37,595 nucleotides of DNA from Enterobacteria phage mEp235. How positions within the stretch are numbered: the stretch's first letter is position 1; every line of letters begins with the position of its first letter. The stretch lies in sequence record NC_019708.1, one strand, 5' to 3'. Shown here piece by piece: positions 22,206 through 27,856 of the stretch. Both the position numbers and the translations under genes were made by a program. The notes beneath the pieces are model-generated. The model was given only the letters and a program-made list of their open reading frames with translations, did not search any database and was not told where the DNA came from.

Positions 22206-22391
22206 TCACTGCTTGCCTCCTTTGCGCCACATCGCATTCAGATATTTGTTGTCATTAACAGAACCGAAACTATTTCTCTTAAGCAATTCCTCTCTCGATG
22301 GCATTGGCTTTACGCGTTGGCGAATAATCATTTCTGCCGGAAGAATGCCGGGATTGTATGCAAGTCCTCTCATGGTAAATTCCTCAGTCAT
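22206..22391 (-). CDS. hypothetical small protein
   Basis: 61 aa; start overlaps stop of upstream ORF (TAATG), suggesting translational coupling. Confidence 0.4.
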
Positions 22392-22680
22392 TACTGATAG
22401 CGCCATAGCGTGAGCGGTAATTACGCAGGCGCGGGTCGATATATTCAGGGAAGTGGGTATATGTTGCTTTGCGGAATGGTCGGATTGATGTCTGGTAAAT
22501 TCGCTCGCGTTCTTCTTTCTCTGCAAGCCATATACAGTGGCGAAATTCCTTTTCCTCTTTCGTTTCCTGCGGTAGAGACATTATTCGATCGTAGTTTTTT
22601 CTGAATTTATCCAGCACCTCCGATACGGAATTGCCGGAACAGCGGCGTGGGTCATCCGCACCATACAGAGGCGCTGGCAT
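22384..22680 (-). CDS. hypothetical protein
   Basis: 98 aa with SD aggag. Confidence 0.5.
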
Positions 22681-22696
22681 GGTTTTCTCCTGTTGA

Positions 22697-23245
22697 TTAT
22701 TTAGCTAACTTTTTCCAGATCGCTGAAACGTATTTGGCTTGGTGGATGGCATCATCAAGCGCGTTGTGGCGAGTTCCTTTGAATGGCATATCTCGCTTAG
22801 GGTCGAATCCTATTGCCTTCCCAAGTTCGACGATTGTTCTTACGTCGCGGTCATTCCACCACTGCCACGGAACTGGCTGCCCTGTCAGCGAATAACTGTT
22901 GCGGAGAATAACGCAGTCAAATGATGCTCCATTCCCCCAAACCTGAACGAGTTTGTGGTTGGCGTTCTTTATGATGAATTCAGATAACCATGAAAGAGCC
23001 GTTGAAAGCTCTTGAGTGTTGCTGGTTAGCGATTTTCTGGCTTCTTCACTCTGTTCCATCCACCATAAAATCGTTGAAGCGTCAGGACGCGCCCGATATC
23101 GCATTGATGACTCAAGCGAGATATTTACCGAGAACTCTTCTCCTGTTTCTCCGGTATTCGGGTCAAAGAATACCGCCCCAATAGAAATAACTGGCGCATA
23201 TGGCCCGTTGCCCATTGTTTCAAGGTCAACCATTAAGTGATTCAT
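22697..23245 (-). CDS. DnaQ-like 3'-5' exonuclease (DEDDh)
   Basis: 182 aa with DLET and H-x4-D (HNALDDA) motifs. Confidence 0.7.
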   Translation of the reverse strand: MNHLMVDLETMGNGPYAPVISIGAVFFDPNTGETGEEFSVNISLESSMRYRARPDASTILWWMEQSEEARKSLTSNTQELSTALSWLSEFIIKNANHKLVQVWGNGASFDCVILRNSYSLTGQPVPWQWWNDRDVRTIVELGKAIGFDPKRDMPFKGTRHNALDDAIHQAKYVSAIWKKLAK

Positions 23246-23253
23246 GTAAGTCC

Positions 23254-23760
23254 TTAAATTGCGTGAATAGCGTGACGAGGGAAGGGGAGAGTTACTGGTG
23301 CAAAGGGTATATCGTCGTCAAAATCCATCGGAGGTTCGTTGTGTTGTGCTGGTGATGATTGCTGCTGTGGCTTCTGTGATTGCCTGCTGGCTGCTTGTTG
23401 TTTGCTGTCGCCAATTCCGCCAAGCATTTGCATCACGCCATTAATTCCGACATGAACCTCGGTTGTGTAACGGTCTTGCCCTGACTGGTCTTTCCACTTT
23501 CTGGTTCTCAGCATTCCCTCGAAATAAATCTGATCACCTTTTTTCACATACTGCCCCACGACCTCAGCCAGTTTCCCGGATACAGCAACACGATGCCATT
23601 CAGTCAATTCCTTTTGCTCGCCAGTATTTTTATCTCGCCATTGTTCTGACGTGGCTATTGTCAGGTTAGCGAACGCTGTACCTGATGGTGAGTATCGAAC
23701 TTCCGGGTCTTGTCCTACCCGACCAAGGATAATCACCTTATTTACGCCTCTGCTTGCCAT
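23254..23760 (-). CDS. ssb: single-stranded DNA-binding protein
   Basis: 168 aa, OB-fold N-terminus, Gln/Pro-rich linker, C-terminal DFDDDIPF tail. Confidence 0.9.
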
Positions 23761-24468
23761 TTATGCCGCCTGTTTTAGTTCGTTAACTCTGATGTTCATT
23801 ACCTGAACGCATTTAGCCTGCGCCTCCTCATTGCCAGCCATTAATTGCCAGTCACGCTGATAACGCTCGATGAGTTTTTTCTTGTCAGTTTCTGTTGACG
23901 CATAATCGCTGAAGTCTTTCAGGATTTGTTCGCAGTCAACCGATGGAGATTTCTGGTTGGTATTTTCTGGTGATGGTTTGTTATCTGATGCTGGTATTGC
24001 CCATCCCGGCAGCGATGGAGGGAGCCAGTAAAATCCTGTTCCATCCTTGAGTTTTGCCCTGTGCCATCCCTGCTTTTTATCGAGAGATGTTTGTGCGAAA
24101 CCTTCCTCAAGGTTATACAGATACCGACCGATTCCCCACTGAACGGCAGCGCGCTTCATTGCACCGGAACGACCACCTTTGACGGCTTCTACCTGCGTGT
24201 TTTCAGCAGCATCCCATTTGGTTACCCATTCGGAATCAATCTTTATTGATATGCCGCATTCAACGCCGCCGTTGTTGGGAATATCGCGGTATTCATTGCG
24301 CCATCCTGCTTTGCCGCAAACATCGTCCAGGCGTTTCATGATTGCCCTGTTCGTGACATAAGCCAGCACCATAGCCCACACCTTGCCATCGCGTGTTTTA
24401 CCGCTTTGCTGTATTCGCCATTCGATATCTTCAGGGCTGAATGGCTCATCGAATTTATTCAAATCCAT
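23761..24468 (-). CDS. Erf/Rad52-superfamily single-strand annealing protein
   Basis: 235 aa with WGIGRYLY motif; adjacent to ssb and exonuclease. Confidence 0.6.
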   Translation of the reverse strand: MDLNKFDEPFSPEDIEWRIQQSGKTRDGKVWAMVLAYVTNRAIMKRLDDVCGKAGWRNEYRDIPNNGGVECGISIKIDSEWVTKWDAAENTQVEAVKGGRSGAMKRAAVQWGIGRYLYNLEEGFAQTSLDKKQGWHRAKLKDGTGFYWLPPSLPGWAIPASDNKPSPENTNQKSPSVDCEQILKDFSDYASTETDKKKLIERYQRDWQLMAGNEEAQAKCVQVMNIRVNELKQAA

Positions 24469-24555
24469 AATTCACCTCAGAATGGACATGGACCAAGGAA
24501 ATAACGCTGATTTAATACTTCGGTCTTTGCCGCATTTAAAAAGACGCGAACACCT

Positions 24556-24726
24556 TCACGATCTCCCTTCTGGCGATACATTAACGCCTGCTGCGTGTAC
24601 ATGCGTCTCTGTAACTTGCTCTCCTTCACTGTGGTTGCAAGTGACATGAATATCTCCTTCGTTACCGATTAATTCTTTCATCTGACGAATGAATTCTTCG
24701 TCTGACCAGTTATCTGTAAAACTCAT
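24556..24726 (-). CDS. hypothetical small acidic protein
   Basis: 56 aa; start overlaps stop of kil-like ORF. Confidence 0.4.
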   Translation of the reverse strand: MSFTDNWSDEEFIRQMKELIGNEGDIHVTCNHSEGEQVTETHVHAAGVNVSPEGRS

Positions 24727-24845
24727 TTCCTGCGATACCACGGATGGTTGATAGCTGATTTCATCGCTTTATTTGCTTCAAGCCACATTTTTGAATCACC
24801 AATAAATCTGGCTATTACTGCTTTGTTCTGTGCAGCACGAAGCAT
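24723..24845 (-). CDS. Kil-like small protein (tentative)
   Basis: 40-aa ORF directly downstream of cIII; loose resemblance to lambda Kil from memory only. Confidence 0.3.
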   Translation of the reverse strand: MLRAAQNKAVIARFIGDSKMWLEANKAMKSAINHPWYRRK

Positions 24846-24859
24846 CTGGTGATTAATGG

Positions 24860-24994
24860 CTATTTCATTGCGCATAACGCCTCCAGTTGTTTCTTTGCTG
24901 CTCTGATTAATTGTTTAACTCGGCGTGATAATTCAGATTCGTGCGGGTAGAAAGCGGACATGACGCCGCTACCCGCGAGCTGAAAGTGCATCAT
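24860..24994 (-). CDS. cIII: CIII-like FtsH inhibitor
   Basis: 44 aa with SD aaggag; central helix PHESELSRRVKQLIRAAKKQL resembles lambda CIII core. Confidence 0.6.
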   Translation of the reverse strand: MMHFQLAGSGVMSAFYPHESELSRRVKQLIRAAKKQLEALCAMK

Positions 24995-25060
24995 GGGTAA
25001 CTCCTTATATTTGATTGCATAACGAAAACGCCTCGAGTGAAGCGTTATTGGTATGCATAT

Positions 25061-25084
25061 AAAAAGGCCCTCACATCGGAGGGC
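25061..25084 (-). terminator. intrinsic terminator in pL operon
   Basis: GCCCTC-ACATCG-GAGGGC hairpin with U-run on minus strand. Confidence 0.5.
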
Positions 25085-25202
25085 AAAGAAGATTTCCAAT
25101 AATCAGAACAAGTCGGCTCCTGTTTAGTTACGAGCGACATTGCTCCGTGTATTCACTCGTTGGAATGAATACACAGTGCTGTGTTTATTCTGTTGTTTAT
25201 GC

Positions 25203-25228
25203 CAAAAATAAAGGCCGACTATGCGGCC
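25203..25228 (-). terminator. intrinsic terminator at 3' end of the 207-aa gene
   Basis: GGCCG-ACTATG-CGGCC hairpin followed by UUUAUUUUU on minus strand. Confidence 0.5.
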
Positions 25229-25842
25229 TCGGAAGGAAGTCCAATCATCTTATTCAAATCTTCTACCCGTAAAGCAGGAAGTGCTGTACTTGCTTTATCT
25301 GCTTCTTTTGGTAGCAACTCTTTGCTTTCAGGCCAAACTTCAATAAGTCGCTTAACTGTTGTGACTGAGTTCAAAGCAGCCCATACATTTGATTCGATAT
25401 CCTTTTTCTTGGCTTCAAGTTTTTGTTGCAATGCGCAGATTTCATCAAACCTTTTTGTTATTTCGTGTTCTGCATCAAACATGCATTTATCTTTGGTTGG
25501 AGTAGGGAGCAATATATCTTCGCCGTTGCCGTCTTTCCCATATGAATGCCATCCAACCCTTCTGCCAGATACAGTCAGATAAATTGAAGTAGAACGAACA
25601 TCGTATGAGTAAAATGAACATCCCATCTTTTCAAGTTCTTCACTTATAGCTACTAACCTGGATGATAACTGATCCACTTCCTCAGTTTTCTTTTTACCGC
25701 CAAACGCAATAACTCTGGCGTCAAGTGCAAGCTGGTTCTTTAACTTTGTTACTTCTTCAAGTTCAGTGAAAACCCCAGACTTAATTAAAGCGTTACGAGC
25801 GATTTTCTCTTTCATTCTCGTAGTTAAGCGGATTGATGACAT
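25219..25842 (-). CDS. uncharacterised soluble 207-aa protein (accessory gene in the N-cIII interval)
   Basis: SD GAGAGGAA before ATG 25842; no family recognised; bracketed by terminators. Confidence 0.6.
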   Translation of the reverse strand: MSSIRLTTRMKEKIARNALIKSGVFTELEEVTKLKNQLALDARVIAFGGKKKTEEVDQLSSRLVAISEELEKMGCSFYSYDVRSTSIYLTVSGRRVGWHSYGKDGNGEDILLPTPTKDKCMFDAEHEITKRFDEICALQQKLEAKKKDIESNVWAALNSVTTVKRLIEVWPESKELLPKEADKASTALPALRVEDLNKMIGLPSEAA

Positions 25843-25955
25843 ATTAATTCCTCTCAAATAAGTGGTTTGCTGCCTAATTTCATTTTCTGGCGACCAACAC
25901 AAGTCACACCCATTTCACTGCGTGGCTTGCTGTAATAAATTAGGTTAGTTCAGAC

Positions 25956-25980
25956 AATAAAAAACCCACCGAAGTGGGCT
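25956..25980 (-). terminator. intrinsic terminator after nun
   Basis: CCCAC-CGAA-GTGGG hairpin followed by U-run on minus strand. Confidence 0.6.
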
Positions 25981-26308
25981 ATGACCATTTTTTATTTGGA
26001 TTTCGTTGGTGAGCGTGATTAACAACTCTGTGCATTACATCCTCATATTTTTCATCTTCAATTTTTTCGACATCGCGAGGAAATGGTGTTGCTAATGCTT
26101 TGTCAACTTTGTCCATTGGTTCTTCATTAATCTTATATTCAGGACCGTCATCTATAGCATTAAATCCAGGTGTTACACCGTTTTTTAATGCATATGCTAT
26201 CCTTTTTTCCCATCTCGCTATTCTCCTCCTGTCTCGAGATGTAAGACCTCTATCAGATACTTTTCTGTTTTGTCCGCGGTCAGGATTAACATAAATAGTC
26301 TTTTTCAC
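25979..26308 (-). CDS. nun: Nun-like transcription termination/exclusion factor
   Basis: 109 aa; arginine-rich motif SRDRRRIARWEKRIAYALKN and C-terminal KKWS match HK022 Nun as recalled. Confidence 0.75.
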   Translation of the reverse strand: MKKTIYVNPDRGQNRKVSDRGLTSRDRRRIARWEKRIAYALKNGVTPGFNAIDDGPEYKINEEPMDKVDKALATPFPRDVEKIEDEKYEDVMHRVVNHAHQRNPNKKWS

Positions 26309-26319
26309 CATAAGCATAC

Positions 26320-26625
26320 TCAACAAGCACCGTACGGTAGTTTACTGTACAATTTTATTTTTTGGACTGCATGTATTTTGTTTCCTAACGGGTTTGAATC
26401 TTTGTAATAAATACTTCTATTTTTTCGAACGACTTCTTCTTTCTTCTTGCAGCAAAGGCTTCCTAGTGATGCTGCTTTGTCTGCTCTGACGCAACCAGAG
26501 AGCTTTAGCGCAATTTTTCGCGCCAGTGCTTCATTACTGCGTCGCTCGGCAATAAGTTCTGCTCTGCGAGCTTTGTAGCGGCTTTTTGCCGTACCTTTGG
26601 ATTCTTTCCAGACAATGGTTACCAT
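26320..26625 (-). CDS. N-like antitermination protein (ARM resembles phage 21 N)
   Basis: ~101 aa basic protein, first gene after pL/nutL; ARM GTAKSRYKARRAELIAERR. Confidence 0.6.
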   Translation of the reverse strand: MVTIVWKESKGTAKSRYKARRAELIAERRSNEALARKIALKLSGCVRADKAASLGSLCCKKKEEVVRKNRSIYYKDSNPLGNKIHAVQKIKLYSKLPYGAC

Positions 26626-26735
26626 GATGGTCTCCTTTAAGTGGCTTTGGCGCATGACGCGTCGAGGTGCTTATCTTCTCGATCGCTGTCTTGCAGCTGC
26701 AATTCGCGCCATCCCCAAAACCACTCAAGTTCTGG

Positions 26736-26775
26736 TCTCAACGGTTAGGTTGAGAGTCCGTCGATGTTAAAGAGC
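26736..26775 (-). promoter_or_regulatory. nutL (boxA plus boxB)
   Basis: minus-strand boxA GCTCTTTAACA (26765-26775) and boxB hairpin TCTCAAC-CTAACC-GTTGAGA (26736-26755). Confidence 0.6.
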
Positions 26776-26819
26776 CTGCCAATCTGTTCCGTTTGGCTTC
26801 CAGCGTCCTGCTGATGGCT

Positions 26820-26875
26820 TAAATTTAAGACTTCTTAATTTATTGGTCAAGTGCATTTTTGAAGAAAACTTAATT
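26820..26875 (-). promoter_or_regulatory. pL promoter with OL operators
   Basis: 18-bp operator ATTTAAGACTTCTTAATT 26823-26840 and a second at 26856-26873; minus-strand -35 TTGACC (26844-26849) and -10 TAAATT. Confidence 0.55.
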
Positions 26876-26918
26876 TTATGGGCGTGAATTTAGTTTGTCT
26901 TTGATTTTTAACGGGAAA

Positions 26919-26940
26919 TAAAAAAGGGGCGAAAGCCCCT
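26919..26940 (-). terminator. intrinsic terminator after repressor gene
   Basis: GGGGC-GAAA-GCCCC hairpin with U-run on minus strand. Confidence 0.6.
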
Positions 26941-27590
26941 TAAGGAAGGTTTGCTAGCTTGGCATCAACGACAACGCCAATGATTTTACAGTTCCCATTG
27001 ATTTCAATCATTGGGTATTGTGGATTGAGTGGTTTCAGGAATTTTCTCCCGGCATCAATAACTAACTTTTTGAATGTCGCCTCGTTTTCTCCTTCAAGTT
27101 TGGCGACTACCAGCTTTCCATTACGTGGTTCGACTTCTGGGTCGACGAGAATAATCATCCCCTCAGGAATACTCAGTCCTGCCGGGGCAGTCATTGAGTC
27201 GCCTTTAACGTCGAGCCAAAAAGAGTCTTCAGAACAATCTACCGTTGTGTCGTACCAGTTATCTATTGCACGCCTATGATATGGCTCTACAGCTTCCATC
27301 CAACATCCTGCGCTTACCCAACTAATTAGAGGATACGAACCTCTTGGATCATGCCTGCTGTGATAGGCAATGTTTGAAAGACTATCCTCTCCTTTCAACA
27401 GGTAATCAGGGGAGCACTGCAAAGCCTTGGCTAAGGCCAATAGGTTTTCGCCATTGGGCTCAGTTTCAGATCGCTCCCATTGGGAAATAGCAACATTAGA
27501 CACGCCAACCATCTTGCCAAGGGCAGCCTGCCTAATCTTGAGTTCTTTTCTGCGAGCGCGAATACGCTCACCCATCAGTTGTGTATTCAT
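26940..27590 (-). CDS. cI: CI-type repressor (P22 c2-like), HTH plus S24 LexA-like autopeptidase domain
   Basis: 216 aa; N-terminus MNTQLMGERIRARRK...QWERSETEPNGENLLAL matches P22 c2 as recalled. Confidence 0.9.
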   Translation of the reverse strand: MNTQLMGERIRARRKELKIRQAALGKMVGVSNVAISQWERSETEPNGENLLALAKALQCSPDYLLKGEDSLSNIAYHSRHDPRGSYPLISWVSAGCWMEAVEPYHRRAIDNWYDTTVDCSEDSFWLDVKGDSMTAPAGLSIPEGMIILVDPEVEPRNGKLVVAKLEGENEATFKKLVIDAGRKFLKPLNPQYPMIEINGNCKIIGVVVDAKLANLP

Positions 27591-27591
27591 A

Positions 27592-27656
27592 GTTAAGACA
27601 TCTTAAATAAACTTGACTTAAGATTCCTTTGGTGGATAATTTAAGTGTTCTTTAAT
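27592..27656. promoter_or_regulatory. OR operators with PR/PRM promoters
   Basis: three 18-bp sites fitting ANTNAAGNNNNCTTNANT at 27592-27609, 27616-27633, 27639-27656; PR -35 TTGACT 27613-27618, -10 GATAAT 27635-27640. Confidence 0.7.
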
Positions 27657-27670
27657 TTCGGAGCGAGTCT

Positions 27671-27856
27671 ATGTACAAAAAAGATGTTATTGACCACTTC
27701 GGAACCCAGCGTGCTGTTGCTAAAGCACTAGGCATTAGCGATGCAGCAGTCTCTCAGTGGAAAGAAGTTATCCCAGAGAAAGACGCCTATCGATTGGAAA
27801 TCGTTACAGCTGGCGCCCTGAAGTATCAAGAAAGTGCTTACCGCCAAGCGGCATAA
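27671..27856 (+). CDS. cro: Cro
   Basis: 61 aa HTH protein immediately right of PR; resembles P22 Cro. Confidence 0.85.
   Translation: MYKKDVIDHFGTQRAVAKALGISDAAVSQWKEVIPEKDAYRLEIVTAGALKYQESAYRQAA

Follow-up and report, generated by a model that had tools for sequence, protein, structure and literature searches.

The described genes closest in position to the one considered here are ral and sieB of phage lambda and gene 17 of P22, which occupy the same place in the operon transcribed from the leftward promoter pL and are similarly swapped between related phages, although they share neither sequence nor family with it. Within its family, near-identical copies are annotated in E. coli prophages and phage Kapi1, and more distant described members are the Nmad5 genes of Dhillonvirus and of the M6-like Yuavirus phages. 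The current study concerns the Nmad5-family gene of Enterobacteria phage mEp235, located on the minus strand at 25219..25842 of record NC_019708.1, the full 37,595 nucleotides of which are referred to here as the window. This is a real, intact gene under purifying selection, and it is carried as a promoterless gene-plus-terminator cassette within a variable slot of the pL operon. The function that we favor, at a probability of roughly 40%, is that of an accessory factor without catalytic activity, made in the delayed-early phase, which serves lytic DNA metabolism or the takeover of the host and acts via a conserved C-terminal module.

Dhillonvirus supplies the only genetic data on any Nmad5 protein. 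There, escape from the Tmn defense maps to the Nmad5 substitutions K216E or K296E, and reversion restores sensitivity (PMC11846954). Deletion of nmad5 does not yield Tmn escape and leaves sensitivity unchanged (PMC11846954), and therefore the wild-type Dhillonvirus protein is neither a Tmn trigger nor an anti-Tmn factor. The gene is also non-essential and could not be cloned, apparently due to toxicity (PMC11846954). Like the mEp235 protein, the Dhillonvirus proteins (phiSMS22 CDS6, phiSMA8 CDS7, and Oekolampad gp07) match the Pfam family PF18757 over its full length, and the C-terminal modules of the two share 34% identity over 101 residues. The Dhillonvirus protein is distinguished by its length (254 amino acids), a divergent N-terminal half, and the placement of its gene, which in this virulent phage lies within the head module, whereas the mEp235 copy is part of a pL operon. 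The Yuavirus protein belongs to the same Pfam family and is the product of an early/middle gene near the DNA polymerase, but only its C-terminal 42% can be aligned to the mEp235 protein by BLAST. Furthermore, the Yuavirus gene sits among genes resembling a 5-hydroxymethyldeoxyuridine (5-hmdU) kinase, a thymidylate synthase, and an HD phosphohydrolase, all of which mEp235 lacks. Literature searches on mEp235 together with defense terms returned no functional study of its Nmad5 gene.

The gene and its family

The sequence-only reading, which was made without database searches, had described a minus-strand open reading frame (ORF) of 207 codons preceded by a strong Shine-Dalgarno sequence and located next to nun, and each of these points is borne out. 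The start codon is the ATG at 25842-25840 and the Shine-Dalgarno GAGAGG (25850..25855, minus strand) lies 7 nt 5' of it, while the gene upstream is indeed a Nun of the HK022 type. The encoded protein is 23.2 kDa with an isoelectric point (pI) of 7.65 and no membrane segment. As every aligned orthologue begins with MSSxRL and the Shine-Dalgarno is appropriately placed, the ATG at 25842 is favored over the TTG at 25902, from which the orthologue of phage Kapi1 (L002:3325-4008) is annotated as a protein of 227 amino acids, probably 20 codons too long. Among related prophages, 78 of 79 full-length copies of the gene are intact, with a median ratio of nonsynonymous to synonymous substitution rates (dN/dS) of ~0.3. 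Several plus-strand antisense ORFs, such as 25181-25582, were rejected as genes because the conservation and the purifying selection both fall on the minus-strand frame.

Where the claim of the sequence-only reading failed was in finding no signature to assign. The protein scores 243.2 bits on the Nmad5 family profile (PF18757), for which the curated cut-off is 27 (E=3.7e-72), its residues 4-203 covering profile positions 1-206 of 206, and its only PHROG match is phrog_1965, a group of unknown function. All 71 close homologues are Nmad5 as well. Near-identical copies are already named "Nmad5 family putative nucleotide modification protein" by NCBI/RefSeq, as opposed to the "hypothetical" label of the mEp235 GenBank record; the copies found in E. 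coli prophages, Stx1 phages, and Kapi1 share 96-100% amino-acid identity with that of mEp235 and are essentially the same gene. There was no match to the protein in NCBIfam or, at E<=1, to any family of PADLOC-DB 2.0, and none of PHROG, PADLOC, or NCBIfam related it to known exclusion families of the SieB or P22 gp17 type. Judging from these profile matches, the mEp235 gene is a member of an already catalogued family of unknown function and not of a new family. The defense idea was to be discarded if the protein matched a known housekeeping family of phages with confidence; the match obtained is certainly confident, and yet it is to a family without a known function. The base-modification context after which the family is named is lacking in mEp235, but this leaves its family membership intact, since that criterion is contextual rather than sequence-based. 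As a genomic feature the gene is ordinary: its family is already catalogued, and the variable slot that it occupies is well known.

Nmad5 is a large family. The phages that encode it are temperate as well as virulent, infect many Proteobacteria, and include those carrying Shiga toxin (Stx). When 1.84 billion representatives clustered at 50% identity were searched with a profile, 2296 matched at E<=0.001, and among the best 150 of these nearly all are stand-alone proteins of ~200 amino acids. By tblastn, Nmad5 was detected in 377 phage records, spanning Stx phages, the P22-like Kapi1, N4-like phages, Yuavirus, Dhillonvirus, and phages of Vibrio and Bordetella. Complete E. coli genomes carry the full mEp235-type cassette in 200 of 5426 cases. 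Matches also occur in 48 records of Stx2a-converting phages. In the one of these that was examined, Stx2_06E050, an insertion of ~1.3 kb belonging to the IS3 family of insertion sequences (IS) splits the gene near codon 35 (L174:696-2004; window ~25736-25739) and encodes an OrfA (HTH_Tnp_1) and an OrfB (rve); by its size, it is presumably IS629. Once the function of Nmad5 is found, thousands of genes could be re-annotated and the escape from Tmn by a single substitution would be explained. The most tractable entry to this question is the mEp235 copy, a dispensable gene in a phage that resembles lambda and grows on E. coli K-12.

A promoterless cassette in a variable slot

The gene lies between N/nun and cIII, an interval that the sequence-only reading had regarded as a cargo slot, and comparisons with related phages support this assessment. 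Relative to HK022, mEp235 contains a minus-strand insert of 763 bp (25199..25961) consisting of a leader, the Shine-Dalgarno, the gene, and a terminator; HK022 homology ends at 25198 and restarts at 25962, and by these BLAST breakpoints just 11 bp separate the two points in HK022. The same slot is differently occupied in other phages, again as judged from BLAST breakpoints. In mEpX1, 25235-25884 is replaced by two tiny ORFs, and in PA28, 25181-25852 is replaced by an exclusion gene of the P22 gp17 type together with an ORF of 156 codons. The leader 5' of the gene (25853..25961, minus strand) is common to these phages with other cargo (from 25885 in mEpX1 and from 25853 in PA28) and is not found in HK022. 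HK022 itself carries an IS903 in this slot (L007:2069-3127; window ~25160-25168), tens of bases from the cassette junction, and the N/nun-to-cIII interval seems to tolerate or attract insertions.

To define the unit that is exchanged, we compared 80 IMG/VR loci encoding the gene at 96-100% amino-acid identity. In all 80, homology spans at least 25189-25862, and therefore the Shine-Dalgarno, the ORF, and the terminator move as one unit. The upstream edge of homology varies between 25862 and 25963, with the exception of four loci in which homology continues through the neighboring genes. Directly upstream, 72 of the 80 loci encode an N-type antiterminator, and only 6 encode Nun. The terminator is present in each of the 80 loci, and the gene has a GC content of 39.9% versus 50% for the whole window. 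These features, along with the extra DNA that separates two genes which are neighbors in HK022, are those of a Hendrix-type moron. The promoter that a moron usually has was not found, however: no sigma-70-like site matching at least 8 of 12 consensus positions is present in 25843-26010, the best being 7/12 by either consensus or relaxed scans.

The intrinsic terminators reported by the sequence-only reading at the nun stop, over the stop of the gene itself, and before cIII are all found as hairpins followed by T-tracts, the last of them as a pair. The first (25963..25980, minus strand; -11 kcal/mol) overlaps the nun stop codon and is also present in HK022, and is therefore outside of the cargo. 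The second (25211..25230, minus strand) holds the Nmad5 TAG within its loop and is co-inherited with the gene, while the pair upstream of cIII is located at 25084-25067 and 25046-25027 (span 25027..25084, minus strand). Each of these terminator-like hairpins folds at about -11 kcal/mol with modest z-scores of -1.6 to -3.6, and the surrounding 5.5-kb region contains 13 such sites compared to 5.3 +/- 2.3 in shuffled sequences. The site at 25084-25067 carries a rho-independent terminator label in the mEpX1 record. An Rfam search of 24000-27800 at E<=1 returned two chance-level matches only.

Given that pL, N, nun, and a terminator all precede it, the gene probably belongs to the delayed-early class and requires N. 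It would be silent in the lysogen, and pL transcription would reach it only once N carries RNA polymerase through the post-nun terminator. An early leftward location is not confined to mEp235. In prophages of Klebsiella, Serratia, and Providencia that encode homologues of 43-58% identity and lack N, Nmad5 is the first gene after a cI-like repressor, and therefore this position appears to be conserved.

It is here that the defense function proposed by the sequence-only reading can be considered, at least in its lysogenic form. A protein expressed from the prophage for defense or superinfection exclusion, in the manner of lambda sieB/rex or P22 gp17, would be in keeping with the gp17-type exclusion gene found in this same slot in PA28, as well as with the moron-like combination of low GC content and a dedicated terminator. 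Prophage-expressed exclusion genes, however, differ from mEp235 Nmad5 in the matter of a promoter: the scans detected none here, and a terminator separates the gene from the upstream part of an operon that is repressed in the lysogen. The protein is also soluble, it lacks a PADLOC match, and it has full-length homologues in strictly virulent N4-like, Yuavirus, and Dhillonvirus phages, with homologues also found inside replication modules. We therefore regard this explanation as very unlikely. The anti-defense half of the original proposal is possible, the Tmn-escape substitutions in Dhillonvirus Nmad5 being relevant to it.

Neighborhoods, structure, and function

When the genomic context of the wider family is examined, a recurrent order emerges among its diverse members: a DUF2800 nuclease of the PD-(D/E)XK type, an Enc34-type single-stranded DNA-binding protein (SSB), Nmad5, and a family-A DNA polymerase (PolA). 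For this comparison, 80 diverse IMG/VR loci were dereplicated to 25 clusters and two genes per side were scanned against Pfam. By BLAST, PolA is encoded within 4 kb of Nmad5 in 13 of the 25 clusters, DUF2800 in 12, and the Enc34-type SSB in 11. Other replication-associated settings can be observed as well, such as Pseudomonas phage Amjad_SA, in which Nmad5 is flanked by a DUF3799 nuclease and an AAA_24 ATPase. In Salmonella phage SPN3UB, Nmad5 is found in the nin region, while in Dhillonvirus Oekolampad (L093:3033-3797) it is a lone opposite-strand gene between the spanin and head genes, a moron-like arrangement within the late operon of a virulent phage. A Providencia prophage (L181:4001-8621) encodes, in order, a cI-like repressor, Nmad5, two unknown ORFs, a DUF2800 nuclease, an Enc34-type SSB, one opposite-strand ORF, and PolA; the first-after-repressor and PolA replication module contexts are thereby joined in a single phage. 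Taking these gene neighborhoods together, the main association of Nmad5 is with replication and recombination genes and the name-giving base-modification context is a minority. The mEp235 genome has no homologue of PolA, DUF2800, or the Enc34-type SSB, and therefore the partner of whatever is invariant in the family would not be any of these phage proteins.

The name Nmad5 suggests DNA modification, and an enzyme of base or nucleotide modification, or a specificity subunit of one, is what both the Pfam and RefSeq names imply. Several observations are consistent with this. Nmad5 of Yuavirus Aergia has on one side a gene resembling a 5-hmdU DNA kinase and on the other one resembling thymidylate synthase, the latter followed by an HD hydrolase, and in the N4-like phage Pollock it adjoins thymidylate synthase, with a PD-(D/E)XK gp42-like gene and primase on its other side. 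Nmad5 is also listed within the thymidine-modification cassette of M6/SN1 (PMC9476957), and the family has invariant Glu, Arg, and Asn residues of the sort that an enzyme might require. Against this, thymidylate synthase was detected near Nmad5 in 0 of the 25 diverse clusters (BLAST, two seeds), and the 64-gene annotation of mEp235 includes no other enzyme of modification or nucleotide metabolism, whether thymidylate synthase, hydroxymethylase, DNA kinase, or transferase. Furthermore, the 5-NedU pathway of M6 was reconstituted in vitro without Nmad5, the enzymes used being the gp51 transferase, the gp52 pyridoxal-phosphate enzyme, the gp53 radical S-adenosylmethionine enzyme, and the gp54 kinase (PMC8989533). 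The fold, described below, is unlike that of any known enzyme, and the Nmad system validated through DefensePredictor contains Nmad2 and not Nmad5. The "NMAD" component of that defense system was dropped as a lead once the supplement showed it to be Nmad2 (PF18753). The evidence assembled here consequently argues against the name, and a modification function for Nmad5 strikes us as improbable.

An AlphaFold model built from 82 aligned sequences is predicted with high confidence, having a mean per-residue score (pLDDT) of 90.6 and a predicted template-modeling score (pTM) of 0.80, compared with a mean pLDDT of 84.5 for an earlier model from 18 sequences. The N-terminal part is predicted to contain three long helices (8-72), a beta-hairpin (86-100), and short strands, and the C-terminal part a long helix (127-158) followed by short helices bearing a WPE..ELLP motif. 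A linker at 185-191 is predicted with pLDDT below 50 and leads to a terminal helix at 194-200 (pLDDT ~60-69). A structure-based identification, as suggested by the sequence-only reading, did not follow from this model: the fold search matched no solved structure, enzyme fold, or DNA-binding fold, and sequence searches of the PDB returned nothing credible with either the single protein or a 40-sequence profile.

Conservation was assessed in an alignment of 142 sequences, comprised of the mEp235 protein and 141 diverse relatives at ~30% identity. The near-invariant positions cluster towards the C-terminus. Here, the residues L166 (141 of 142), W170 (141), P171 (137), E172 (139), E175 (127), L176 (140), and P178 (142) are highly conserved, and the terminal helix region has L196 (140), N197 (142), G201 (134), L202 (131), and P203 (125). 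The N-terminal part contributes R5, R43, G48-G49, and G93. All of these family-wide residues, as well as T162, are present in the mEp235 protein, each being conserved in 82-100% of the sequences.

The first 75 residues of the protein form a basic stretch with a pI of 9.25, and this, together with the conserved R5 and R43 and the early position of the gene, could be taken to indicate a regulatory or structural DNA-binding protein, such as an early transcription factor or a replication-origin factor. A "putative transcription factor" is reported, along with four hypothetical proteins, as part of the Enc34 replication module (PMC5686142); the gene neighboring the SSB is not identified in that paper. 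Such a role is nonetheless unlikely, since neither Pfam nor the fold search detects a helix-turn-helix or other DNA-binding domain, no obvious DNA target is common to the phages that carry the gene, and the gene is dispensable.

The accessory-factor role that we favor can be outlined as follows. Nmad5 would be a soluble and compact domain, mostly helical but including a small beta-sheet. The C-terminal module would consist of T162, L166, W170-P-E172, E175-L176, and P178, followed by the flexible linker and the short helix containing L196-N197 and G201-L-P203. This module would engage a partner that all hosts of the family have in common, presumably a conserved host protein of DNA metabolism, DNA itself, or another Nmad5 subunit, rather than a phage-specific enzyme. 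The recombination genes that follow further along the mEp235 operon (Rad52-type annealase, SSB, DEDD exonuclease, and Abc2) are in keeping with such a role. If so, Nmad5 would not modify bases, nor would it be a lysogen-expressed exclusion protein.

The principal competing explanation is that Nmad5 is dedicated to counter-defense, as a putative early blocker of a host immune system or nuclease, for instance a Tmn-type or DNA-targeting defense. Its location in the ral/gp17 slot would then mark it as cargo of an arms race. Its patchy presence among close relatives, low GC content, and promoter-proximal early position are all what one might expect of such a gene, as are its non-essential nature and its interruption in the Stx2a phage. 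The Dhillonvirus escape substitutions and the toxicity encountered in cloning point in the same direction. In this regard, if the Oekolampad numbering applies to the published phages, K216 of the Oekolampad protein (254 amino acids) aligns with R165 of mEp235, a position just before the WPE motif that is basic in 104 of the 142 sequences. Precedent can be found in inhibitors of host nucleases that reside inside phage replication and recombination modules. Lambda Gam, P22 Abc2, and T7 gp5.9 are small, dispensable early proteins encoded among genes for exonuclease, annealase, SSB, and polymerase. These are functional analogies to Nmad5 only and not homologues of it, although mEp235 itself does encode Abc2 (PF11043) in the same operon as Nmad5. 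Conversely, deletion of Dhillonvirus nmad5 left Tmn sensitivity unchanged, and the family is unusually uniform in both length (~200 amino acids) and invariant residues, which is atypical of fast-evolving inhibitors. Its fixed place inside SSB-PolA modules is similarly atypical of proteins that inhibit variable defense components. A dedicated counter-defense role is therefore possible, albeit doubtful.

Several considerations weigh against the accessory-factor role as well. The absence of the gene from close relatives, its disruption by an insertion sequence in a Stx2a phage, and its deletion in a Dhillonvirus suggest that it is dispensable, and such a pattern would be no less fitting for a gene of counter-defense or host range than for an accessory of replication. 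The mechanism outlined above is drawn from gene neighborhoods and structure prediction, and the IMG/VR neighborhood sample is skewed towards relatives of one seed (P0084). The promoter scans addressed sigma-70 consensus sites only, and it is just as conceivable that the invariant Glu, Arg, and Asn residues make up the active site of an enzyme with a new fold.

A further and more speculative reading is that Nmad5 might be a widely distributed phage factor of host takeover or counter-defense with a previously unseen fold, in which the WPE...ELLP core and the tethered DLN..IGLP helix disable a conserved host component of DNA processing or immunity, and the Tmn-escape change (aligned with R165) retunes that interaction. 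Were this tentative proposal to be true, it could first be shown with mEp235 on E. coli K-12, where the genetics are easy.

The surrounding operon

The genome of mEp235 has 64 annotated genes, and PV340540.1 (Escherichia phage mEp235, 37,599 bp) served as the annotation reference, being 100% identical over 2.1 kb around the Nmad5 gene. In this record, the minus-strand genes of the early leftward operon run in the order cI, N, Nun-like, hypothetical protein (the Nmad5 gene), cIII, kil, Rad52/Erf-type annealase, SSB, exonuclease, Abc2, xis, and int. A putative pL-like promoter (26822..26850, minus strand) is located between the cI terminator and N and is composed of TTGACC, a 17-nt spacer, and TAAATT, with 9 of 12 consensus matches. 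Between this site and N, at 26766..26777 (minus strand), the boxA-like sequence GGCTCTTTAACA is a candidate nutL boxA, and a "putative Nut boxA" is annotated at the corresponding place in the mEpX1 record. This sequence is nearer to the rrn-type boxA than to that of lambda, CGCTCTTA, and a search for the exact lambda boxA gave matches at chance level. The candidate boxB 3' of it is unconfirmed, because its hairpin folds no better than shuffled sequence.

The N-like antitermination gene (26320..26625, minus strand; phrog_271, E=1.2e-31) is annotated as N in PV340540.1 and is followed by the HK022-type Nun-like gene (25979..26311, minus strand; phrog_5632, E=9.3e-71), a region whose DNA matches HK022 at 96.6% over window 25962-26437. 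The two are thus encoded in tandem in mEp235, whereas HK022 has Nun alone; the same N-plus-Nun pairing can be found in mEpX1, Kapi1, and PA28.

On the downstream side, cIII (24860..24994, minus strand; PF08134, E=7.9e-30), which is an annotated coding sequence in PV340540.1, forms the conserved flank of the slot. Beyond it lies a recombination module of mixed composition (22384-24468, minus strand), which encodes a Rad52/Rad22-family annealase under the annotation Erf, together with an SSB, an Rv2179c-like DEDD 3'-5' exonuclease, and P22 Abc2. The exonuclease (PF16473, E=1e-73) replaces the lambda-Exo-type nuclease, and Abc2 (PF11043) is an anti-RecBCD protein. Between the cassette and cIII there is also an ORF of 31 codons (25045..25140, minus strand) with the N-terminus MSLVTKQEPTCSDYWKSSLPS..., which corresponds to the 5' end of a gene for a highly charged coiled-coil protein of 354 amino acids. 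The intact gene, with the same N-terminus, starts 82 nt after Nmad5 in one of the related loci (L013) and 12 others, and in 27 loci the homology downstream of Nmad5 ends at 25057-25061. From these comparisons, the ORF of 31 codons is best read as a remnant and a deletion scar, a slot that would once have held a second cargo gene.

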